From Clostridia bacterium (lineage in GTDB: Bacteria > Bacillota > Clostridia > Oscillospirales > CAG-272): a DNA stretch of 64,000 nucleotides. The first letter of the stretch is position 1. Each line of letters starts with the position of its first letter. The DNA is taken from assembly GCA_017464565.1 (NCBI GenBank), contig JAFTZH010000035.1, forward strand, positions 213,838-277,837, in the 5' to 3' direction. Below, in pieces: positions 3,340 to 24,678 of the stretch. The notes beneath the pieces are model-generated. The model did not search any database and was not told the origin of the DNA. It was given only the letters and a program-made list of their open reading frames with translations. Made by a program: the position numbers and the translations under genes.

Positions 3340-5691
3340 TCAGCCGTGATCGGCACGTCTGAGTGAAAGCGGAAGAGGGAGCCAATCTCGCACCTCCACG
3401 GGCAGATGATCCCTTGTCTCGCTTATATTTGAAAACAGCAAGGAAGACGCCTCCGCTTCGTTTAATTCAAGCATAGGATATTTTTTCGTGTTCGGATTAA
3501 CCTTAACTCGTCCGTCCTTAACCGAAAGCTCAAAGCGCTCGTCCGAGCGTTCGTGATGCACGAGCAGTACGAGCTCACCGTCGGAAAGCTCCCTTTGCTT
3601 TGCGGCAAGCTTAAGAAACGCTCCTGCGGTTTCCGCAAATCGGGATATCCTGAACATTTCCCAGGTCTCACTGCACGTCTGCTCAGCGACCGCCGAAGCC
3701 AGACGTATCAAATTCCTGTCATACGGCGGGAAATGAATTTTCATAGACGAATGCTCGTCTACGTACGCCGCTATCAAGGGATAAAAATATTTTTCTTCCG
3801 AAAGCGTAAGCTCGTGTACACCGCTTCCGCTTTCGAGATAATATCCGACGAATCGTTCTCCGTCAAGCACGGCAAAAAGCTTTTTTCTCCAAGACAGAAG
3901 AATATCGTAAAGCCGTTCGCGTTCTCTTTCAGCTCTGACCTCAAGAGTGTTAAAGAGAGCGTATATACCGTCAAGTATCCACTCGTCTCTTTCGGATACC
4001 TCTTTTATGGAAAGCGAAGGAACGCGCGCTTGCGCGAGACGATATTTCACGTTCGCTTTGTTGAACGTAAAAATAAGATCGGAGGTGACTTGATAAAATC
4101 CAAATCTTTCGTATCTTTGTCTCTGGCCTCCGAGAACCGCGAAATCCGCCCCCGACGAGTCTATTTCGTCTATCGAACGTTTCATCATTTTAGACATATA
4201 TCCTCTTGAGCGTGCCTCCGGCGCGGACGCCACGTTTCCGAGGCAAACTCCGCGGAGTCTTTCGCCGGCAACGTTATAATAAAAAGGATAAAGTCCTACC
4301 GCTCCCGATATCCCGTTCTCATCGCAAAGAACGATATTGTTAGAGCAAGGCTCGTATTCTTTTTTATAAAGCTTCGGCAGCAGATTTATAAATTTATCCT
4401 CTTCCTTCTCGAAGCCGAAGGCTCTGTCCAAAAAAGTCATAAGCTCATCGTACTCACTCGCTCTCGCCCATCTTATCTCCTCGGTATAATGAGATTTCCC
4501 GAAAAGCTTCGCGAGTCCGCCCTCTGACGTCTCTTTATAGCTTGAGGAAAGGTCCTTACCCGTTTCGTACATAGTTTTTACTATGGTATCAAACGAGACC
4601 TTGTTGGTGTTTCCGAGTACTCCCGCAAGGTCAGCCGCGCTCATAGCCCGAAGCGCCGCCACCGCGTTTCTCTCTATACAAGGTATCTGAACGAGTCCGC
4701 AGACGGGGTCGCAGGTGAGTCCTATATGGTGCTCCATAGCTATCTCGGCGGCGTACTCTATCCTGTCGAGGTCAAGCCCCGCAAGCTCGGAAAGCGCGGC
4801 AGCCGCCATAGAGCAAGCCGTTCCGACCTCCGCCTGACAGCCGCACTCCGCGCCGCTGAGAGACGCGTTGCGCTTGACCACGTTGCCGACTACTCCCGCC
4901 GCCGCGAGTGCCTGAAGTATCTCTCTGTCCGAATATCCCTTTTTATCCTGCATATATTTCAGCACCGCAGGAAGAACTCCGCACGATCCGCAGGTGGGAG
5001 CGGTAACTATAACCCCGTTATCGGCGTTCTGTTCGCTTACGGCGAATGCGTATGCGCTGACCAAACGGTTTTCCGAGGATATTTCGTCCGCCTGCTTGCT
5101 TACGTTATACAATGTTGAAGCCTTTTTTTCAACGTTAAGCCCGCCGGGCAGTATTCCCGTGCTTTTGATTCCCGCCTCAATAGCGTCTGTCATCGTTTTC
5201 CAGACCCGCGCAAGATGCTCGTAAAGCTCCGCTCCCTCGTGCAGCTCGGCGTATTCGTGAAGAGTTATACCCTTATCTCTGCAAAAGCGCACTATCTCTG
5301 TAAAATTTCTTTCATTATATATATCGGGACTTTCCTCGCGTTCAAATCCGTCTATAACTATTTCTCCTCCGCCTATGCTGAGCGCCCTTGCCCGTCCTAT
5401 CTCTTCTCTGCCGAGATACGCGACGAGCTCCATAGTATTGGCGTGAGGAAGCGCGAATCCCGCGTCGTTTACGAACTCTATCGCCACTTCTCTCGGTGCA
5501 AGCGTCTCGGAGATTACCTTATCGGTGCCGTGTCCCTTTCCCGTTTTCGCAAGCGAGCCGTACAAATATACCTTGAACGAGTCAGCATCGGGATATCTCT
5601 CTCGGAACAGCTCGCAGGCTTTTTGCGGCCCCATCGTGTGAGAGCTTGAAGGTCCCTTTCCGATTTTATATATTTCCTTTATGGATTTCAT
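3340..5691 (-). CDS. fusion protein: Fe-S L-serine dehydratase (single chain) + Eis-like GNAT N-acetyltransferase with SCP2-like tail
   Basis: 783-aa continuous ORF with an RBS GGAG upstream of ATG 5691. The N-terminal roughly 400 aa carry IGKGPSSSHTMGP, APTCGSCGV, SGAECGCQAEVG and GLTCDPVCG. The C-terminal roughly 380 aa carry a GNAT core (NVASAPEARSRGYMSKMM, VLGGQRQRYERFGF). Confidence 0.8.
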   Translation of the reverse strand: MKSIKEIYKIGKGPSSSHTMGPQKACELFRERYPDADSFKVYLYGSLAKTGKGHGTDKVISETLAPREVAIEFVNDAGFALPHANTMELVAYLGREEIGRARALSIGGGEIVIDGFEREESPDIYNERNFTEIVRFCRDKGITLHEYAELHEGAELYEHLARVWKTMTDAIEAGIKSTGILPGGLNVEKKASTLYNVSKQADEISSENRLVSAYAFAVSEQNADNGVIVTAPTCGSCGVLPAVLKYMQDKKGYSDREILQALAAAGVVGNVVKRNASLSGAECGCQAEVGTACSMAAAALSELAGLDLDRIEYAAEIAMEHHIGLTCDPVCGLVQIPCIERNAVAALRAMSAADLAGVLGNTNKVSFDTIVKTMYETGKDLSSSYKETSEGGLAKLFGKSHYTEEIRWARASEYDELMTFLDRAFGFEKEEDKFINLLPKLYKKEYEPCSNNIVLCDENGISGAVGLYPFYYNVAGERLRGVCLGNVASAPEARSRGYMSKMMKRSIDEIDSSGADFAVLGGQRQRYERFGFYQVTSDLIFTFNKANVKYRLAQARVPSLSIKEVSERDEWILDGIYALFNTLEVRAERERERLYDILLSWRKKLFAVLDGERFVGYYLESGSGVHELTLSEEKYFYPLIAAYVDEHSSMKIHFPPYDRNLIRLASAVAEQTCSETWEMFRISRFAETAGAFLKLAAKQRELSDGELVLLVHHERSDERFELSVKDGRVKVNPNTKKYPMLELNEAEASSLLFSNISETRDHLPVEVRDWLPLPLSLRRADHG

Positions 5692-14625: not shown

Positions 14626-14643
14626 AATACGAATTTACGAGAG

Positions 14644-14676
14644 AAACGGCAGAAGCCCAAGAGCTTCTGCCGTTTT
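14644..14676. terminator. hairpin terminator between convergent genes
   Basis: AAACGGCAGAAGC-N6-GCTTCTGCCGTTT followed by a short T-run. Confidence 0.75.
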
Positions 14677-14702
14677 CCGTTATAAATTATTAAATTAAAG
14701 CT

Positions 14703-15446
14703 TTATCTGAATTCCTTCAGCCCCGAATCAAGAGATCGTTTTCTGATTATTGAATACCACTCGCTTGAAAGGTCGCCGGAAAAGATTGCGAAGCGCTCCT
14801 TCAGTGCCGTTATCAGCATTTCGGGATTGAGAAAATTATCGGTTCCCGCACTCAAGACCGCATCCATACGCACCGCATTATCCTCGGCGCAAAAAGCAAC
14901 CTCTATCGATTTTATCAAGGAAGCTATATCTATCTCTTTTTCACCCGACTTCGTCCTTTTAATCATATTCAATGGCGAGGTAGTAAAGAGCGTTTTGATT
15001 TCATCAGCCGCCTTCTCCGACGCGCCTTTGAAAAACAGCTCGTATTCGTATTCGCAAAAAGCAATATCCGAAAATTTTGCGTTCGGTATATAGACGTCGG
15101 TTATATACATTTCGTCGGACATCTCGGCGTTGAGCATTCGCTTGATATCCTCAAGGGGCATTTCCCTGTCAAGCCTTATGTCGAGAAACTCACACTCGCT
15201 CTGCGTTCCTATCGAGAGCGGGGTTGAAAAGACCAGCTTTGCGTGCGGATTGAAGCCCTTGGTGTACCATATCGGAAGTCCCGAACGGACGAGCACCCTG
15301 TTAAACGTCCTTTGCAGGTCAAGATGAGAAATGTACTGTAAGCTTCCGAGCTTGACGAATTTAAGCCTCACGGTTATCGGACTCTCTATTTCGGGAAGAA
15401 TCCTCAAATATTCGGGGCGGGTTATTTTACTGCCTTCGGACAGCAC
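14703..15446 (-). CDS. TIGR03936/DUF2344 radical-SAM-associated protein
   Basis: 247 aa with KFVKLGSLQYISHLDLQRTF and PIWYTKGFNPH. It overlaps the upstream radical-SAM gene by 25 nt, and an internal GTG start is possible. Confidence 0.8.
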   Translation of the reverse strand: MLSEGSKITRPEYLRILPEIESPITVRLKFVKLGSLQYISHLDLQRTFNRVLVRSGLPIWYTKGFNPHAKLVFSTPLSIGTQSECEFLDIRLDREMPLEDIKRMLNAEMSDEMYITDVYIPNAKFSDIAFCEYEYELFFKGASEKAADEIKTLFTTSPLNMIKRTKSGEKEIDIASLIKSIEVAFCAEDNAVRMDAVLSAGTDNFLNPEMLITALKERFAIFSGDLSSEWYSIIRKRSLDSGLKEFR

Positions 15447-17281
15447 GAGCGCTCACCTCCCAGCTTGTTCGCGCCGCAGCCGCTGCACTTTTCACGGCAG
15501 CTCGGCGTCGTTTTTTCATTCTTCGCGTTTTTATATTCTCTTATAAGAAATTCCTTTGTAACTCCGCAGTCTATTATATCCCACGGCAAGACCTCGTCAA
15601 CCGAAAGCTCACGGTTCGCGTAAAATGCGGGATCGATTCCCGTCTTTTCAAAGACCGATATCCACCTGTCGTAATCGAAGCACTCGTCCCACGCGTCAAA
15701 TTTAAAGCCTTCCCTGCAAGCCTCCTCAAGCGCCGCGGAAAGCCTTCTGTCGCCTCTCGCGAGCACCGCCTCGATTCTGCTGACCCTCGCGTCGTGATGC
15801 GTATATACTACCTTCCTGTCGGTTATCTTGCTTCCGAGATATCTCTGCTTTTCTTCAAGCGTCTCTATCGTATCCTGCGCTACCCATTGGAAAGGTGTAA
15901 AGGGCTTCGGGATAAAGCAGGACACGCTTATAGTAACCTGCGGCTGTCTTGCCTTATTGCGCGTCGGACACTTATAATAAGCGTCTACCACCGACGACGC
16001 GAGCCTTGAGATGCCCTCAAGATCCTCGTGAGTTTCTGTGGGAAGTCCCTCCATAAAATACAGCTTGACTTTATTCTTCCCTGCTTCAAAAGCGACGTTC
16101 ACCGCGCGGAGAAGGTCCGCCTCGGTAACGTTTTTATTGATTACGTCGCGCAGTCTCTGCGTTCCCGCCTCGGGCGCAAAGGTAAGCGAGGACGAGCGCA
16201 CCGACGCTATTTTATCCATAAGCTCCTTCGTGAAGCTGTCAACGCGCAGGGACGGAAGCGAAAGGCTCACCATATTGTCGTCCGTCCATTTGAGCAGCAT
16301 ATCCGTCAGCGCTTCAAGCTCGGTATAATCGCTTATGGAAAGCGAGGTCAGTGATATCTCGTCGTATCCCGTAGCCTCAAACAGACATTTTGCCTGCTCG
16401 TTCAGCACCTCGGGAGACTTTTCTCTTACGGGACGGTATATGATTCCCGCCTGACAGAAGCGGCAGCCTCTTATACAGCCTCTGAACACCTCAAGCATTA
16501 CCCTGTCGTGTACCGTTTCGATATACGGCATAACCACCTTCTTCGGAAAATACGAGCTGTCCATATCGGTCATAATGCGCTTGCGCACCGTTTTCGGAAT
16601 ATCGTCGTATTTGGGCTTATACTCCTTTATCGTTCCGTCCTCGTTATAGCTTACCTCGTAAAGCGACGGAACGTATATTCCCTCTATCGTCCTTGCCGCC
16701 TCGTGCAGATAATCCGCCTTCGTATATCTGCCCTCGTCCTTCATTTTTATATAAAGACGGCAAAGCTCGGGAAGCATCTCCTCTCCCTCGCCGATGTTGA
16801 AAAGGTCAAAGAAATCCGCCACAGGCTCGGGATTGTACGCACAGGGACCTCCGCCTATGATTATCGGCGAATCCTCCGCTCTCTCGGAGCTTTTAAGAGG
16901 AAGTCCCGCAAGGTCAAGCATATTCAATACGTTGGTATAGCTCATCTCGTATTGAAGCGTAAAGCCTATCATATCGAAATCGGATATCGGGTCTCCGCTC
17001 TCGCAGGCAGTAAGCGGTATACCGTATTTTTTCATCTGCTCCTGCATATCGCTCCAAGGGTTATACACCCTCTCGCACCAAACGTCGCTCTCCTCGTTGA
17101 GAACTCCGTAAAGGATTCTCATACCGAGGTTTGACATTCCTATCTCGTAGGTGTCGGGAAAGCAAAAGGCAAACCTCGCCTTTACCTTGGTTTTATCCTT
17201 AATTATCTGTCCGTACTCTCCGCCCGAATATCTTCCGGGCTTTGAGACGGCTTTAAGTATCGTGCTTATATTTTTATTCAT
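15422..17281 (-). CDS. TIGR03960-type B12-binding-domain radical SAM protein
   Basis: 619 aa with the CxxxCxxC motif in FRGCIRGCRFCQAG. Its ATG overlaps the TGA of the upstream gene (ATGA at 17278-17281). Confidence 0.85.
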   Translation of the reverse strand: MNKNISTILKAVSKPGRYSGGEYGQIIKDKTKVKARFAFCFPDTYEIGMSNLGMRILYGVLNEESDVWCERVYNPWSDMQEQMKKYGIPLTACESGDPISDFDMIGFTLQYEMSYTNVLNMLDLAGLPLKSSERAEDSPIIIGGGPCAYNPEPVADFFDLFNIGEGEEMLPELCRLYIKMKDEGRYTKADYLHEAARTIEGIYVPSLYEVSYNEDGTIKEYKPKYDDIPKTVRKRIMTDMDSSYFPKKVVMPYIETVHDRVMLEVFRGCIRGCRFCQAGIIYRPVREKSPEVLNEQAKCLFEATGYDEISLTSLSISDYTELEALTDMLLKWTDDNMVSLSLPSLRVDSFTKELMDKIASVRSSSLTFAPEAGTQRLRDVINKNVTEADLLRAVNVAFEAGKNKVKLYFMEGLPTETHEDLEGISRLASSVVDAYYKCPTRNKARQPQVTISVSCFIPKPFTPFQWVAQDTIETLEEKQRYLGSKITDRKVVYTHHDARVSRIEAVLARGDRRLSAALEEACREGFKFDAWDECFDYDRWISVFEKTGIDPAFYANRELSVDEVLPWDIIDCGVTKEFLIREYKNAKNEKTTPSCREKCSGCGANKLGGERSCCPKAVK

Positions 17282-20199
17282 TCGCTTTTCTCTGTTTCTT
17301 TTGTTTTTTCTTTTTTATCGGAATCCAAGCTGCTTTGCATAGCCTCTACCGTAAAATAATCTCTCGGAGGCAGGCACAAGCCCATAGCCGCAAATACGGG
17401 AAGCATAGACAGCATTTGAACGAGCAATACGAAATATTGATTCAAATATCCCGAAAATCCAAGAACAAACGACAGCGTAAGAAGTCCGCATACGAGTCCG
17501 AAAACTACCCATTGGGCAATGTTCATAATCCTTGATATTTTATTTAATCTCTTGCACCATACTACTCCCTCGATAAGCTTGAATCTCGAAGAGGAAACCA
17601 CCATACCCGTCATTTCCGCGGGCGCGCCGTTTTTCTCGGAATAAAGATCCATTACGTTTTTATGTATAACGTTTATCGGCACGTGTCTGTTTTTACGGCA
17701 GCGAGCGGTAAACGCGCTGTTTATTACGGGATCGTAGGTTTCTATCGCGCATTTGATTCCGTTTTCAGCCATTCTCGAAACGAGCATCTCAAACAGAGGC
17801 TCGGATTTATATCTCAGGCAAAGTCTTGCCGAGGGGCGTCCGTCGATAACGAAGCCGAGAATACCGTCGTCGCTTTCGGTCTCTCCCTTGGGAAAGGCTA
17901 TTCCGTATCTTCTCATAAACGACTCGTCTCCGAGAATAATGCTGTGCGCGGAATCTACGAGAGCCTCGACGCCGTTGCGCGCGATTCTGCGTATTCTCAC
18001 CGTATGCTTGCTTGCCGATACGCCGCCGAAAACGTCCTTCATAGGTCCGCCGATAACTCCGTAGAGCGCGTCAAGATATTCGACCACCGTTTTGGTATTT
18101 TTCTCGTCTAAAATAACTATTCCGTTATCCTGCGGCAACGCCTTTTTGAAAAGGTGCATATCGTTGAAAACGATATAATCGCAGTCGGCGTATTTATGAA
18201 CCATAGATTCGCTCGCAACGGCTATCTCGCGCGAATACAGTCTTGAAGACGTTTTGTATAGCGGAAAGCTCCGCGACGCCAGAGAGGCGAGCGGGCATAG
18301 CGCCGTAAGCGTTATTATGAATATCGACAAAGCCGCGTCCGCCGTACTTCCGAGCATAGCGCTCACTATAAGCGCCGCGGTACTCAAAAGCACGATAGGC
18401 GTTATCATATAGCTTATCGAAAATCCCGCGCCCGACGACGAATTTATAGCCGAAAAATAGCCGTTCGGAAATTCTATCTCACAAGGCTCGAATACGTTTT
18501 TATCGTAAGGCAATCCGCCCCGATACATTTTTTCTGCCGACGAGCCGACGCCGCCTTCCGTATTGAAGGTGAATTTTTTCTTATCCGAGGAATATACCGC
18601 AAAGCACTTCATCTCTCTGCAAACCTCAAGGTATTCCGTAACGAGCGCAAAAAGGATATATACCGAAGCGAGCATTCCAAAGGTATACGATACCGTTTCG
18701 GGAGAAATAATAATGAGCGCCAGATCGTACACCAAAACGAACAGTACCGCAAAGGATACCGCAGACCATCCGTCGGCTTTAAGCGAAAATACCTTTTTAA
18801 AACCGCCCCAAAGCTCTCTCCACGCAAGAGCCGCCGAAAGAACGAGCATCTGCATTCCTATAAGTATATACGCCGTGGGATATCTGCTGTAACTCGGAAG
18901 CGTTTCGGTAACTATATCCAATACGGGAAACAGCTCGTAAATAAACAGCAAAAAGGTGAAAAAAGCACATCCGATAAGGCGCAGAAGCGTAAATTTACGC
19001 TCTCGCTTGTAGGATTCGAGAAGCGCGTCGGTCTGTTCGTCGGATTCAAACTCCTCACCTTCAAAAGCAAACGCCTCGGAGGGATCTATCTCTTCCCTTT
19101 CGTCCAACCTTGATGCGTTGACGTATTGCTCAACTCTCTCTGCGGCAACGTGGCTTCTCGCCGCGTTTATATCTCCTACCTCAAGCATAATTCCGAGCAT
19201 AGCGTCGTCTATCTCGTCAATCTCTCCGATACCGTCATCACCGTCGTGAGGATTATCGGTATCTCCGAAATCCATAACTATCTGTTCCTCATCTTCGGTA
19301 TCGGGAAGGCTTTCGTCATCGTAAGCGTATTCCCCGTCCGCAGAGGAAAGATTTTCAAAAAGAGCAAGCTGTCCGTCGTCGCCGCTGAAAAATTCCGCCT
19401 CGTCCTCCTCCGCTTCCTCAAAAGCGTCGGCACCGTCTGTCTTTTCGGTTATAGGCAAATCTTCCTCCGTCAGCTCCTCGCAGACCTCGGCGGCAAGCTC
19501 ATCCACGTCGGCTTCCTCCTCGTCAAAAATATCTTCGAGGTCTTCCTCGTCCGCGCAGTTTTCTTCCGTGCCGCCGTGGGCTTCGGCGTGCAGAAGTACT
19601 ATCTCTCCGTCCTCGTTTTCTATAAATATACCGTCCTCGGAATCGTCCTCCGAGTCCTCCTCAATATCCTCACGTTTGAAAAGAAGCTCACCCTCAAGCT
19701 CCTCCCCGCCCTCAAGCTCGGAAAAGGTCAGCCCGCCGTCATTATCCTCAAGCTCTGAATCCCCCAAGCTCTCATCTGCGTCGTTTTGTATAACTTCATC
19801 CTCCATATCGAACGGAGGAATACCGTCGTCATCGTCATCTATCTGCTCTGCCTCGCTGTCCGCGCCGTCCTCACGCTCCGACATTATCTCGTCGTCAGCC
19901 TCTTGCTCCAATGATATCTCGTCATCAGGGTCCGCGGTCTCCGACTCGGCAGCCGACTCCGACAGAAAATCATCGTCAAGCGTATACGAAAAAGAGTCCG
20001 CCTCGTAATCGGATTTTTTATCCTCGTTTATATCTCCGCTCAAAAAACGGTCCTTCAGCTTTTGCCGAAGCTCCTCGTGAGAAAGCGCTCCGCCGTCGTC
20101 CGTCGAATTCTTATCGTCGGGGGCTTTCTCCGCGGTACCGTCCTCGTACGAGCTTTTGAGTAGCTTCAGAATATCGTCTATATTCTGCTCTTTATTCAT
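17278..20199 (-). CDS. degenerate P-type (P1B-like) ATPase homolog with a long acidic N-terminal region; predicted catalytically inactive
   Basis: 973 aa. Residues 1 to about 390 are extremely D/E-rich. The rest has P1B-like TM and loop architecture, but CPC is replaced by CPL, DKTGT by NDMHL, TGD by YDP, and GDGxND is lost. RBS GGAGGAG. Confidence 0.6.
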   Translation of the reverse strand: MNKEQNIDDILKLLKSSYEDGTAEKAPDDKNSTDDGGALSHEELRQKLKDRFLSGDINEDKKSDYEADSFSYTLDDDFLSESAAESETADPDDEISLEQEADDEIMSEREDGADSEAEQIDDDDDGIPPFDMEDEVIQNDADESLGDSELEDNDGGLTFSELEGGEELEGELLFKREDIEEDSEDDSEDGIFIENEDGEIVLLHAEAHGGTEENCADEEDLEDIFDEEEADVDELAAEVCEELTEEDLPITEKTDGADAFEEAEEDEAEFFSGDDGQLALFENLSSADGEYAYDDESLPDTEDEEQIVMDFGDTDNPHDGDDGIGEIDEIDDAMLGIMLEVGDINAARSHVAAERVEQYVNASRLDEREEIDPSEAFAFEGEEFESDEQTDALLESYKRERKFTLLRLIGCAFFTFLLFIYELFPVLDIVTETLPSYSRYPTAYILIGMQMLVLSAALAWRELWGGFKKVFSLKADGWSAVSFAVLFVLVYDLALIIISPETVSYTFGMLASVYILFALVTEYLEVCREMKCFAVYSSDKKKFTFNTEGGVGSSAEKMYRGGLPYDKNVFEPCEIEFPNGYFSAINSSSGAGFSISYMITPIVLLSTAALIVSAMLGSTADAALSIFIITLTALCPLASLASRSFPLYKTSSRLYSREIAVASESMVHKYADCDYIVFNDMHLFKKALPQDNGIVILDEKNTKTVVEYLDALYGVIGGPMKDVFGGVSASKHTVRIRRIARNGVEALVDSAHSIILGDESFMRRYGIAFPKGETESDDGILGFVIDGRPSARLCLRYKSEPLFEMLVSRMAENGIKCAIETYDPVINSAFTARCRKNRHVPINVIHKNVMDLYSEKNGAPAEMTGMVVSSSRFKLIEGVVWCKRLNKISRIMNIAQWVVFGLVCGLLTLSFVLGFSGYLNQYFVLLVQMLSMLPVFAAMGLCLPPRDYFTVEAMQSSLDSDKKEKTKETEKSE

Positions 20200-20235
20200 A
20201 CTGCTTCTCCTCCTGACCGAGATTCGTTAGGATAA

Positions 20236-21075
20236 TCAATGTCCTCTGTGCTGCTTTGACGCCTCCGCAAGAAGTATCGCGGCAGCGGTGGATACGTTAA
20301 AGGAATTTACCTTTCCGTACATAGGAATAGAAACTATATAATCCGATTTTTCTTTGGCGAGCTTGGAGACTCCGTCTCCCTCGCTTCCGAAAATTATTGC
20401 GCACGGGCATTTGAAATCGGTATCGTAATAAGCTTCTCCGCCTGCCTCGGCTGCAAATATCCAAAGCCCCTTTTCCTTAAGCTCGTCTATACAAGCCGCT
20501 ATATTAGGAACCTTCGCTATGGCTATATGCTCGATAGCTCCCGCCGACGCCTTTGATACGACGGGGGTAAGTCCGACCGCGCGCCTTTTGGGAATTATTA
20601 TACCGTGCGCTCCCACGCCCTCGGCGCATCTTATAAGAGCCCCCAGATTATGAGGGTCGGATATTCCGTCGGATATTGCCAAAAGCGGCTTTTCTCCCCG
20701 CTCTCTCGCAATCTCGAGTATATCGTCAATCGTGGAATATTCCTTCTCCGCCGCCATTGCGACGACTCACTGATGCGGTATACCGTCCGCCATTTTATCA
20801 AGCTTTATCTTGTCAGCCTCGACTATCGGTATCTTCTTTTCGATAGCCTCGGCGACTATTACCACGATAGAGCCCTCCCGCTCGCCTCGCTGAACGAATA
20901 TTTTATCCACCGCTCTGCCCGAACGCAAAAGCTCCCTGACGGCATTGCGCCCCGCGACGATATTTTCAGAGACCTCCTCCGGTACCTCGTCGTATCTGGT
21001 TTTAGCATTGTCGCGCGTACGGTTCACTTTGCCGCCGTAAACACCCTTTCGGTTTCCGTATTTTTTATCGTTCAT
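20236..21075 (-). pseudogene. rlmB: 23S rRNA 2'-O-methyltransferase RlmB interrupted by one in-frame TGA (split into 102-aa and 173-aa ORFs)
   Basis: The N-terminal ORF ends ..DGIPHQ-TGA (20767-20769). The SpoU-domain ORF continues 9 nt later in the same frame (VVA-MAAEKEY..DPHNLGALIRCAEGVGAHGIIIP). Confidence 0.65.
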
Positions 21076-21224
21076 TAGTTCAGAGCCCTCTCAATACAAT
21101 ATTATTATCTAATTGTAACATATTTTCTCGATTTTGTATAGAGCAAGTATAAAAATAATCAAATTTTTCTTCTTTTTTCGATAAAATTCAGCCGAGACTT
21201 GACGAACGTAGCCTCGGCTTGAAA

Positions 21225-22727: not shown

Positions 22728-24134
22728 TTGGACGCTTATATACCATTTATTCCCGAAACCATAACGGTGCACCTCGGTCCTCCGAACTCCGATGCCGAAA
22801 ACGTAACCATACCCTTTATCGACTACATAGCCAACGTCGCCTCAAGCGAGATATATCCCACCTGGCCCGAAAATGCCGTAAGAGCGAATATTTACGCGCA
22901 GATATCCTTTGCGCTCAACAGAATATACACCGAATATTACCGCTCGCGCGGTTATAACTTCGATATAACGAACTCTACGGGAATAGATCAATCGTTCGTA
23001 AACGGACGCGATATTTTTGAAAATATATATCAGATAGTAAGTGAGATATTCAATGATTATCTCTCCCGTCAAGGAAGCGTTGAACCTCTGTTCGCACAAT
23101 ACTGCGACGGTATTGAGGTCGTATGCGACGGACTATCTCAATGGGGCTCGGTAGACCTTGCAAATAACGGATATACACCGTACGAGATTCTGACCTACTA
23201 CTACGGAGACGACATAGATATAGTCCGAAACGCCCCCGTGCAGAGTATTACGGCAAGCTTTCCCGAAACGCCTCTGCGTCTCGGAAGCGCGGGAGACTCG
23301 GTACGCGCCCTGCAGATACGTCTCAACAGAATATCCGACAATTATCCGTCTATACCGAAGATAGCCGTTCCCGACGGGGTGTTTTCTTACGACACCGAGG
23401 AGGCGGTAAAAAAATTTCAGGAAATATTCTCTCTCACTCCCGACGGAATCGTGGGAAAGGCGACGTGGTACAGAACGCAGTTTATATACAACGCGGTCAA
23501 ACGCCTGAACGAGCTTGACTCGGAGGGTATTTCTCTGTCCGAGGTAAGCGATCAATACTCCGAATCTCTCGAAGCGGGAGATGAGGGCGTTGAGGTGGCT
23601 AATCTGCAATATTTCATAAATTATCTCTCCGCCTTTTACGATACGATTCCCTCTCTCGATATCGACGGTATATACGGTCCCTCCACCGAAAACGCGGTAA
23701 GAGCCGTACAGCAAGCCTTCGGTCTCCCCGTAACGGGGGTTCTCGACCTTGACACCTGGGAGGCTATATACCGCACCTATCTCGGCTTCGTAGCCACCAT
23801 TCCTCTCAAATACGTTGAAGGAAATATCATTCCCTATCCTGGTATTCCGCTTCGTCTCGGTTCCTCGTCGGACGCCGTAACTCTGCTTCAGGAATATCTC
23901 AATTTCGTCGCCGCGGTATATACCGAAATTCCCACTATACCCGTAACGGGCTATTTCGGAACGCAGACGCAAAACGCCGTTCTCGCGTTCCAGCGCCTGT
24001 CCGGCATTCGTCCGACCGGCACCGTAGCCGCCGCCACCTGGCTGGCGCTGACCACTCTTTACAGCGATCTTTACAACGGCTCGCGTCTCAACGACGGACA
24101 GTTTCCGGGCTTTAACGTAGGCGAAGCTCAATAG
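22728..24134 (+). CDS. SleC-like peptidoglycan-binding protein (putative spore cortex-lytic enzyme family)
   Basis: TTG start 8 nt after GGGGAGG. A conserved N-terminal region is followed by three PG_binding_1-type repeats (LRLGSxGDxV..LQ....DG.FG..T..AV..FQ). Confidence 0.6.
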   Translation: MDAYIPFIPETITVHLGPPNSDAENVTIPFIDYIANVASSEIYPTWPENAVRANIYAQISFALNRIYTEYYRSRGYNFDITNSTGIDQSFVNGRDIFENIYQIVSEIFNDYLSRQGSVEPLFAQYCDGIEVVCDGLSQWGSVDLANNGYTPYEILTYYYGDDIDIVRNAPVQSITASFPETPLRLGSAGDSVRALQIRLNRISDNYPSIPKIAVPDGVFSYDTEEAVKKFQEIFSLTPDGIVGKATWYRTQFIYNAVKRLNELDSEGISLSEVSDQYSESLEAGDEGVEVANLQYFINYLSAFYDTIPSLDIDGIYGPSTENAVRAVQQAFGLPVTGVLDLDTWEAIYRTYLGFVATIPLKYVEGNIIPYPGIPLRLGSSSDAVTLLQEYLNFVAAVYTEIPTIPVTGYFGTQTQNAVLAFQRLSGIRPTGTVAAATWLALTTLYSDLYNGSRLNDGQFPGFNVGEAQ

Positions 24135-24150
24135 CTTGAAAGGAGATATT

Positions 24151-24678
24151 ATGGCTCAAATCAGCGAACGGGACGCGGTAACCAATCTTCAAAGATATCT
24201 GCGTCAGCTTTCATATACGGAAAAATCCATTCCGCCTCTCCCGATAGACGGAATATTCGAAAATGCTACGAGAGAAGCGCTTATAGCCTTTCAGCGTCTT
24301 TATTCTCTCTCTCCGAGCGGTGTTGCCGACAGAGAAACCTGGAACAAGCTATACGAGGAATATTTAAAATCAATATCGAAAAATCAGGCTCCCCGTATGC
24401 TTGACCTCTTTCCGAGAGTTCCAGACGACTACTCTCTGCGCCGAGGGGACGAATATTTTCTCGTAAATACGGTTCAATTTCTTTTGAACGAACTGAGGAT
24501 AATATACGATTCCTTCATTCCGCTAGTAATAAGCGGCATATTTGACGAGGCTACCGAAACGAACGTGATGGATTTTCAGAAGAAGAACAAACTTGACGCA
24601 ACGGGGCGCGTAGATAAAGAGACGTGGAATAAGATAATCGAAGCGTATGAAAATTACGCGGGCGGTTACTTAAAGTAA
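24151..24678 (+). CDS. peptidoglycan-binding domain protein (two PG_binding_1 repeats)
   Basis: ATG 24151 follows AAAGGAG, so the TTG 24136 in the track is probably too long. The repeat pattern is LQRYLRQL..IDGIFENATREALIAFQR. Confidence 0.65.
   Translation: MAQISERDAVTNLQRYLRQLSYTEKSIPPLPIDGIFENATREALIAFQRLYSLSPSGVADRETWNKLYEEYLKSISKNQAPRMLDLFPRVPDDYSLRRGDEYFLVNTVQFLLNELRIIYDSFIPLVISGIFDEATETNVMDFQKKNKLDATGRVDKETWNKIIEAYENYAGGYLK

Follow-up and report, generated by a model that had tools for sequence, protein, structure and literature searches.

Gene X and Its Locus

The window analysed here is the whole 64,000-nucleotide stretch of a Clostridia bacterium genome (GenBank assembly GCA_017464565.1, contig JAFTZH010000035.1, positions 213,838 to 277,837), and the gene under study, hereafter X, is an open reading frame (ORF) on its reverse strand (17278-20199) that starts with ATG and encodes 973 amino acids (Table 1). 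X lies 36 nt downstream of rlmB, whose family (TIGR00186) comprises the 2'-O-methyltransferases that form Gm2251 of 23S rRNA, and upstream of two genes of the TIGR03960 (radical S-adenosylmethionine, rSAM) and TIGR03936/DUF2344 (rSAM-associated) families, the start codon of the first overlapping the X stop codon (ATGA at 17278-17281). A sequence-only reading of the window had described X as a P-type-ATPase-like membrane protein with all its catalytic motifs replaced, a poly-acidic N-terminus, and an operon shared with rlmB and the rSAM pair. The 36-nt spacing and the stop/start overlap it reported are indeed present in the sequence, a ribosome-binding site (AGGAGGAG) precedes the ATG, and co-transcription is supported by gene context, spacing, and overlaps across related loci. 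The acidic character is likewise evident, residues 1-390 being 38% Asp plus Glu (17.9% Asp and 20.3% Glu, 149 acidic versus 19 Lys/Arg residues) with a net charge of -130. The motifs it had quoted do occur, with CPL (18289-18297) and NDMHL (18151-18165) at the positions it had assigned and VSSSRFK at residues 868-874, but IETYDP lies at 17728-17745, the interval 17737-17751 that it had given encoding CAIET, with an offset of two residues.

Structural Relationship of X to P1B-Type Pumps

Taken as a single sequence, X matches no Pfam family and no sequence of the PDB, and among NCBIfam models it touches only TIGR01525, far below its cut-off (E = 0.023, 13.6 bits, cut-off 346). Three out of 40 family members touch PF00122, with E values of at least 0.038, and no threshold of a curated P-type ATPase model is reached. 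Single-sequence searches gave almost nothing, and the homology of X becomes significant only with profiles and structure. Searched against the PDB, a profile of 40 family members retrieves P-type ATPases (E = 2e-7) over helices M3-M4 up to the residue preceding DKTGT, and the profile of a sister subfamily matches LpCopA (E = 2.3e-9) over 257 positions, from M3 through the P/N domains to TGD. Alignment with hhalign of the X family to four canonical Cu-ATPases yields a probability of 96.5% and E = 7.9e-10 over 394 columns, beginning at the MB platform helix and ending before GDGxND; these Cu-ATPases came from a word-indexed search with the full-length sister alignment A3, which was dominated by low-complexity words and returned 11 proteins.

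The AlphaFold model of residues 391-973 shows a predicted local distance difference test score (pLDDT) of 89.2 and a predicted template modelling score (pTM) of 0.86. Its best Foldseek matches in the PDB are all P1B pumps, including LpCopA 4bbj (E = 4e-13), ATP7B, and 7r0g (TMq 0.59), and these are followed by KdpB, ZntA, and P2 pumps. The helix order is P1B-like, with MA, a kinked MB, M1, M2, a small domain, M3, a proline-broken M4, the P/N domains, M5, and M6; in this way, all eight transmembrane (TM) helices (MA, MB, and M1-M6) and the A, P, and N domains are recognized in the model, the A (actuator) domain being cut to ~55 aa. The P1B homology that the sequence-only reading had proposed for residues 390-973 is, therefore, borne out by hhalign, by the profile searches, and by AlphaFold combined with Foldseek, and X very probably has a P1B-type ATPase fold and is a catalytically dead P1B descendant.

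Catalytic Motifs Lost and Residues Retained at the Old Active Site

Relatives of X were compared as subfamilies A (the nearest to the window), B, and C. At the phosphorylation site X reads NDMHL instead of DKTGT, a pairing already proposed from the sequence and recovered in the same register by HMMER and hhalign, which are both ungapped across the motif. The alignments show the catalytic Asp to be lost: its column is occupied by Asn679 in the window and varies among relatives (N/S/A/K/R/G/E/H/Q), and Asp680 falls on the Lys of DKTGT. In the actuator, EKMYRGG aligns to the canonical DES(M/L)TGE segment (DESMITGE) with a gap at the Glu; the TGES-type loop that had been reported as missing is thus devoid of its Glu, but a shrunken actuator domain carrying the EKMYRGG loop does exist. 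The N-domain SEHPL motif is IGGPM, with His changed to Gly and Pro alone kept, and GDGxND is (V)SSSRFK in the window and SSR(L/F)KL as family consensus, with no acidic residues. In M4 the CPC motif is not preserved, its Pro636 being invariant and the flanking positions C/S/A/L/M and I/L/V/C.

On the contrary, the TGD hinge is retained as T821-Y-D823-P824, with an aromatic residue replacing Gly; the equivalent Thr, Asp, and Pro are invariant in subfamily A, 90-98% conserved in B, and present as S-x-D-P in C. Hence, the statement that every hallmark differs holds for DKTGT, GDGxND, TGE, HP, and CPC, but not for the Thr and Asp of TGD, which are invariant. Also kept are the N-domain glycines, and Gly466 at the MB kink, Gln450, and Pro636 are conserved across subfamilies. 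In subfamily A, an invariant or near-invariant set occupies the old active site, comprising D680 (100%), H682 (95%), H846 (99%), K847, S871, R872, and K874. The position of D680 is 88% Asp in subfamily B, where H682 and H846 are unconserved; in subfamily C the phosphorylation site reads EA(A/G)(N/D)LF, with Ala at the position of D680, and none of D680, H682, and H846 is conserved.

At the same site, residues 679-685 of subfamily B (e.g., locus L031, 8001-10988) read F(D/E)DK(D/E)VFP, with a frequently acidic catalytic column (Asp 37%, Glu 26%) and a "DK" that is shifted by one position. This motif looks like an intermediate stage in the decay of DKTGT.

The term pseudo-ATPase, already applied to X in the sequence-only reading, is justified, given that in the alignments X lacks the catalytic Asp and the Glu of the actuator, as well as the aspartates of GDGxND, the His of HP, and the cysteines of CPC. 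Since X has no phosphorylatable Asp, no canonical nucleotide- or Mg-binding residues, and no conserved Cys site in M4, it is predicted not to pump, and since six defining sequence features fail, it should not be classified among the P-type ATPase enzymes. As read from the alignments, X is unable to run the P-type cycle, yet it is not freely drifting.

The Acidic Tail and Its N-Terminal Helix

In the full-length model, residues 20-325 appear disordered (pLDDT < 50) and order begins near residue 330, with short helices predicted at residues 5-19, 41-53, and 76-84. No other linear element of the protein is as well conserved as the first of these helices, which reads MNxEQNIDDILKLLK in subfamily A (core NIDDILKLLK), S(A/V)(D/E)ELLxxLK in B, and SIDEIIKKAE in C, and it is kept even where the core of X is only 20-25% identical. 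An acidic tail is found in every relative examined, its length varying family-wide between 200 and 700 aa; its Asp/Glu content amounts to 26-41% in subfamily A (net charge from -27 to -150), 21-52% in B, and 26% in C (net charge -25). Because of the P1B topology and of the positive-inside residues that precede MA, the tail would be cytoplasmic.

One of the short islands of the tail, GQLALFE, contains QLALF at residues 277-281 (nt 19357-19371, reverse strand), and its consensus, (F/Y)SxxxGQL(A/S/T)(L/M/I)F(E/D), stands at a fixed distance of 103-112 residues before the membrane domain. QLALF fits QL[SDA]LF, the sliding-clamp-binding consensus. QLxLF occurs in 31 of 116 subfamily A members, which form the closest subclade, and in none of 37 of subfamily B; this clamp-like motif was rejected as a functional clue, since its confinement to that subclade means that it cannot explain the family.

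Family Extent and Divergence

A word-indexed search returned 46 clusters, all of them hypothetical proteins of uncultured Clostridia or Oscillospiraceae. An exhaustive profile search over representatives of 50%-identity clusters gave 3,528 matches at E <= 1e-3, 2,423 at E <= 1e-10, and 1,024 at E <= 1e-30, and among the best 150 all but obvious fragments carry a long N-terminal extension. Ten distant members that were looked up are named no further than "hypothetical protein"; traceable members come from uncultured Clostridia, Oscillospiraceae, or "Eubacteriales" alone, of gut and rumen. No description of the family was found in Pfam, NCBIfam, or the literature.

X is an intact ORF of the same architecture in ~50 loci, with dozens of invariant residues, and it is the fastest-changing member of its neighbourhood. 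Identities range over 22-57% for X, 67-90% for the rSAM protein, and 62-86% for RlmB; in subfamily A the respective values are 30-57%, 81-90%, and 73-86%, and in subfamily B they are 22-28% for X, relative to the window protein, and 67-76% for rSAM. In a separate homologue search with the rSAM protein, the matches listed were all at least 82% identical. The nearest homologue of X shares no more than 60% identity with it in the conserved core, and 52% when the full length is compared, so synonymous sites are saturated.

Operon Organization and Gene Neighbourhood

In the window, rlmB, X, the rSAM gene, and the DUF2344 gene look like one operon, because of the gene overlap, the 36-nt gap, a promoter-like site upstream, and a terminal hairpin (Table 1). 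The TIGR03960 and TIGR03936 genes are adjacent, overlap by 25 nt, and pass both curated NCBIfam cut-offs. The hairpin at 14640-14680, as far as its sequence indicates, is probably the operon terminator; its Rfam match to mir-55 (31 bits, E = 0.003) is below the gathering score and was discarded as spurious. The consensus scan for terminators performed at chance level, and the operon ends were therefore taken from the sequence. As P-type pumps are often preceded by metal riboswitches, riboswitches and leader RNAs were sought at this operon, but none was found. Neither the window nor any of the first 35 loci encodes a canonical P-type ATPase.

The window copy of rlmB (20236-21075, reverse strand) is interrupted by an in-frame TGA at 20767-20769 (...GIPHQ*VVAMAAEKEY, the asterisk being the stop) between the SpoU_sub_bind and methylase domains, and the gene is intact, with ~277 aa, in all 33 related loci compared. 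The TGA is probably a GGA-to-TGA change in a conserved HQG motif, and its origin may be either a real nonsense mutation or a consensus or assembly error of the metagenome-assembled genome.

Across loci, rlmB ends 8-49 nt before X in 47 out of 47 cases. In subfamily A the order rlmB-X-rSAM-DUF2344 is found in all 29 species-representative genomes, wherever the contig reaches. In subfamily B the four-gene cassette is complete in L030, L031, L032, L034, and L036, with rSAM alone seen downstream in L035 and the contig of L033 ending too early, and the genes flanking the cassette are unrelated between loci. The linkage X-rSAM-DUF2344 is thus observed in 29 loci plus five of the six distant loci whose contig reaches downstream. 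In 12 of 33 loci the start of rSAM overlaps the stop of X, the overlap being 4 or 8 nt, and elsewhere the two genes are 5-66 nt apart; an apparent X-rSAM fusion in L002 and L004 (gap -1860) was rejected, since tblastn had run through stop codons and both loci have stops.

Subfamily C consists of 16 human-gut metagenome loci, with rlmB located 8-18 nt upstream in all 14 that cover that side. In them rSAM and DUF2344 are absent within up to 8 kb downstream (~9 of the 16 loci extend far enough), and the order (L038, 7192-12806, and L039-L053) is ECF-S component, rlmB, X, DegV, RluA-type pseudouridine synthase, and LuxS. Here too, X has genes for RNA modification as neighbours, but not the rSAM pair. 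Flanks change repeatedly, with nrdR, a sigma factor/zf_Tbcl, capsule genes, ECF-S, and ABC/MarR upstream or beyond, and pit, DegV, a beta-lactamase, a YgjP-like gene, and an acetyltransferase downstream. Since subfamily C keeps rlmB-X alone, RlmB is the universal neighbour of X and the rSAM pair a frequent but non-obligatory one. The suggestion that X is a dedicated partner of TIGR03960/TIGR03936 therefore agrees with the linkage in subfamilies A and B (34 loci) but not with subfamily C, where the pair is missing; accordingly, co-occurrence of X with the pair held in A and B and failed in C, with rlmB alone adjacent.

Elsewhere in the window, a 783-aa ORF at 3340-5691 (reverse strand) joins serine dehydratase beta and alpha chains to a GNAT acetyltransferase domain in an unusual-looking fusion, and two adjacent ORFs at 22728-24678 (forward strand) contain SleB-like, peptidoglycan-binding, and SpoIID-like segments. 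SpoIIP and GPR (Peptidase_A25) are encoded near X in sister loci. The SleB-like and SpoIID-like ORFs of the window, together with SpoIIP and GPR in the sister loci, indicate that the host lineage forms spores.

Table 1. Coordinates of X, its predicted segments, and the other features of the operon in the window (all on the reverse strand).
Feature	Position	Strand	Basis or detail
Promoter-like site TATACA-17-TACAAT with TG, 5' of rlmB, after the hairpin 3' of the nrdR stop	21112..21140	-	Consensus match alone
rlmB, N-terminal part: K/R/N-rich extension and SpoU_sub_bind	20767..21075	-	PF08032, E = 1.9e-13
rlmB, SpoU methylase domain	20236..20757	-	TIGR00186, E = 7e-53, profile positions 74-239 of 240; PF00588
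Ribosome-binding site AGGAGGAG	20207..20214	-	Sequence; 7 nt 5' of the X ATG
X, pseudo-P1B-ATPase, whole ORF	17278..20199	-	973 aa
Conserved amphipathic helix motif QNIDDILKLLKSSYE, residues 5-19	20143..20187	-	Conservation, model
Acidic disordered region with short conserved islands, residues 20-325	19225..20142	-	Composition, pLDDT
Juxtamembrane cytoplasmic helices, residues 330-386, islands DDxxLxLMxxxGD and EYxxxEQ	19042..19212	-	Model, conservation
MA, MB (conserved Gly466 kink and platform, Gln450), M1, M2, residues 387-536	18592..19041	-	Model, hhalign, conservation
Shrunken actuator remnant, residues 537-591, ~55 aa, EKMYRGG for the TGE loop	18427..18591	-	Model, hhalign
M3 and M4, residues 592-656; M4 broken at invariant Pro636; CPC is CPL, Cys unconserved	18232..18426	-	
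Vestigial P and N domains, residues 657-873	17581..18231	-	Alignments, conservation
M5, M6, charged C-terminal helix, residues 874-973	17281..17580	-	Model
TIGR03960 B12-binding-type radical SAM gene	15422..17281	-	E = 6e-286, 949.7 bits, cut-off 462
TIGR03936/DUF2344 radical-SAM-associated gene	14703..15446	-	E = 3e-48, 164.1 bits, cut-off 71.9
Strong hairpin AAACGGCAGAAGC ... GCTTCTGCCGTTT after the DUF2344 stop	14640..14680	-	Sequence

Proposed Function of X and Alternative Explanations

The reading that we tentatively prefer, with a probability of roughly 0.4, is that X serves as a membrane-anchored scaffold or tether built on a dead P1B body, whose acidic arm would hold RlmB and possibly other partners. 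In X the eight-helix membrane domain and the P/N headpiece are kept, with a shrunken actuator and with pumping predicted to be lost, and the metal-binding domains are replaced by a probably cytoplasmic polyanionic arm of ~325 residues headed by the conserved amphipathic helix. RlmB and X appear to be encoded in a single operon, joined in most lineages by TIGR03960 and TIGR03936. RlmB, with its K/R-rich tail at the N-terminus, could then be captured by the helix and the acidic arm, as could, alternatively or in addition, other basic clients that bind RNA or belong to the ribosome. The locked headpiece might offer a binding face, for example, to the rSAM pair, whose translation is often coupled to that of X, or to their substrate. 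As a result, a step of rRNA or ribosome modification would be placed at the inner face of the membrane.

A scaffold is favoured because (i) the helix, the tail, and the adjacency to rlmB are the only family-wide features besides the fold, (ii) translational coupling of X and rSAM is common, and (iii), as a lead only, strongly acidic X tails go together with a long K/R/N-rich extension of RlmB. In the window this extension is a low-complexity segment covering residues 1-38 of RlmB (20962-21075, reverse strand) before the L30e-like domain; in loci L001-L053 it measures 35-50 aa, with 8-13 Lys/Arg, in genomes whose X tail is strongly acidic, against 17-22 aa in subfamily C, with its X tail of net charge -25. 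The basic extension may be an electrostatic partner of the X tail.

Several points weigh against a scaffold. The correlation between the tails of RlmB and X rests on three non-independent groups, with phylogeny uncontrolled. X evolves far faster than its neighbours, a behaviour not usually seen in a protein that pairs stoichiometrically with strongly conserved enzymes, and gene adjacency within one bacterial class could in part reflect inheritance. In addition, the conserved cluster formed by D680, H682, T821, D823, H846, K847, S871, and R872, as it emerges from the alignments, suggests ligand binding or sensing rather than a passive scaffold. Finally, TIGR03960 and its partner are widespread in bacteria that have no X, so X is not required for the chemistry of the rSAM pair.

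It is possible, if unlikely, that X has a membrane role unrelated to its neighbours, in the envelope, in sporulation, or in stress, and that an inherited clostridial gene order has simply been kept by tight spacing. The restriction of all traceable members to uncultured Clostridia, Oscillospiraceae, or "Eubacteriales", the large difference in evolutionary rate between X and its neighbours, and the disappearance of the rSAM linkage in subfamily C are all compatible with such a situation. Nonetheless, neutral synteny is normally gone at such divergence, and rlmB-X adjacency at 8-49 nt persists in every one of the 47 loci despite X falling to ~20% identity and the flanks being repeatedly replaced.

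A role for X as a sensor of a ligand or metal, or as a passive path for ions, in place of a scaffold is likewise unlikely. In this reading, a divalent cation or a phosphorylated ligand would be held in the remodelled phosphorylation pocket, which in subfamily A offers Thr, Lys, Arg, and a pair each of Asp and His, and in B an acidic D/E-D-K-D/E cluster. The poly-Asp/Glu tail would take up cations with low affinity, and the M4 Pro together with polar membrane residues would keep a conduction or binding site, so that X might gate or report the supply of a metal or cofactor, for instance, for an Fe-S/B12-type rSAM enzyme. Conserved residues do stand exactly at the positions of the old HAD motifs I-IV (D680, H682, T821, D823, P824, H846, S871, and R872), Pro636 in M4, Gln450, and Gly466 are kept across subfamilies, the ancestor was a metal pump, and acidic tails are plausible cation binders. 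Nevertheless, with D680, H682, and H846 unconserved in subfamily C, and H682 and H846 also in B, no binding site is shared by the whole family. The cysteines of CPC have gone, the conservation table revealed no obvious family-wide counterpart of the canonical M5/M6 metal ligands, and neither a metal riboswitch nor a metal-related neighbour was found.

It is highly improbable that X remains energy-coupled in a non-canonical manner, with D680 as phosphoryl acceptor, H682 as acid/base, and Arg/Lys substituting for Mg2+. D680, invariant in subfamily A and 88% Asp in B, adjoins the canonical Asp column, a conserved His or acidic residue follows two positions later in a DxH/DxD-like arrangement, and T821, D823, and K847 are retained; but both alignment methods put D680 on the Lys of DKTGT, it is Ala in subfamily C, the HP His, the GDGxND aspartates, and the TGE Glu are missing, and the actuator is halved. 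A decaying pseudogene or an artefact, such as an acidic and a membrane gene read as one, might be suspected from the lack of a Pfam or NCBIfam family and from the extreme low complexity, but comparison across loci effectively rules it out: the frame is single and intact and follows a ribosome-binding site, ~50 loci share the architecture, in which the N-terminal motif is always accompanied by both tail and core, the fold is predicted with high confidence, and dozens of residues are invariant.

Returning to the scaffold, its more specific form, in which a large family of pseudo-P-type ATPases repurposed from metal pumps uses its polyanionic arm and N-terminal helix to recruit RlmB, and in most lineages also TIGR03960/TIGR03936, to membrane platforms, must be considered doubtful. 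If true, it would be the first bacterial "dead pump" scaffold, it would tie a step of ribosome or RNA modification to the cell membrane, and it would offer the first functional handle on the TIGR03960/03936 pair.

Significance and Comparison with Known Systems

P-type ATPases are among the best-understood membrane enzymes, and the X family, with ~1,000 clusters, represents a clean natural case of a transporter turned into a pseudoenzyme. Catalytically dead members are not mentioned in a 2023 review of the P-type ATPase field, and full-text literature searches gave no description of a catalytically dead bacterial P-type ATPase; for the TIGR03960/TIGR03936 pair, neither functional literature nor a solved structure was found. 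The position of X behind rlmB provides a testable hypothesis on where, and with what, an rRNA methyltransferase works, and the frequent translational coupling to TIGR03960 provides one of the same kind for a widespread rSAM pair. With its net charge of -130, the X tail is moreover an extreme example among the conserved, disordered polyanionic regions of bacterial proteins.

Among known systems, P1B pumps (CopA, ZntA, and ATP7A/B; TIGR01525) share with X the eight-helix topology, the MB Gly kink and platform, an M4 unwound at Pro, the order of the P and N domains, the Thr and Asp of TGD, the Pro of SEHPL, and the N-domain glycines. X differs from them in having no phosphorylatable Asp, TGT, GDGxND, or TGE Glu, in the change of HP to GP, in its unconserved CPC cysteines, in an actuator of ~55 aa, and in the replacement of the metal-binding domains by an acidic disordered tail of 200-700 aa.

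The C-terminal half of RNase E and RNase Y are membrane-tethered disordered scaffolds of bacterial RNA metabolism, and by analogy they resemble X in combining a membrane anchor with a long disordered region that contains short motifs, X being encoded near genes for RNA processing or modification. They differ from it in that an active nuclease is attached and the anchor is an amphipathic helix or a single TM helix, whereas in X a complete pseudo-pump forms the anchor and a catalytic domain is missing.

The closest conceptual precedent found is provided by the P4-ATPase-guanylate cyclase (P4GC) chimeras of alveolates (P4GC beta; Cryptosporidium), in which degenerate flippase modules have lost the DKTGT Asp and/or the actuator Glu and are thought to have a supporting or regulatory function rather than a transporting one (PMC13466520). 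In both cases a P-type body stays under selection after catalytic loss. The chimeras are eukaryotic P4 lipid flippases, fused to a cyclase, whose loss is partial and lineage-specific; X, on the contrary, is bacterial, P1B-derived, and unfused, has lost its motifs family-wide, and carries an acidic disordered tail.

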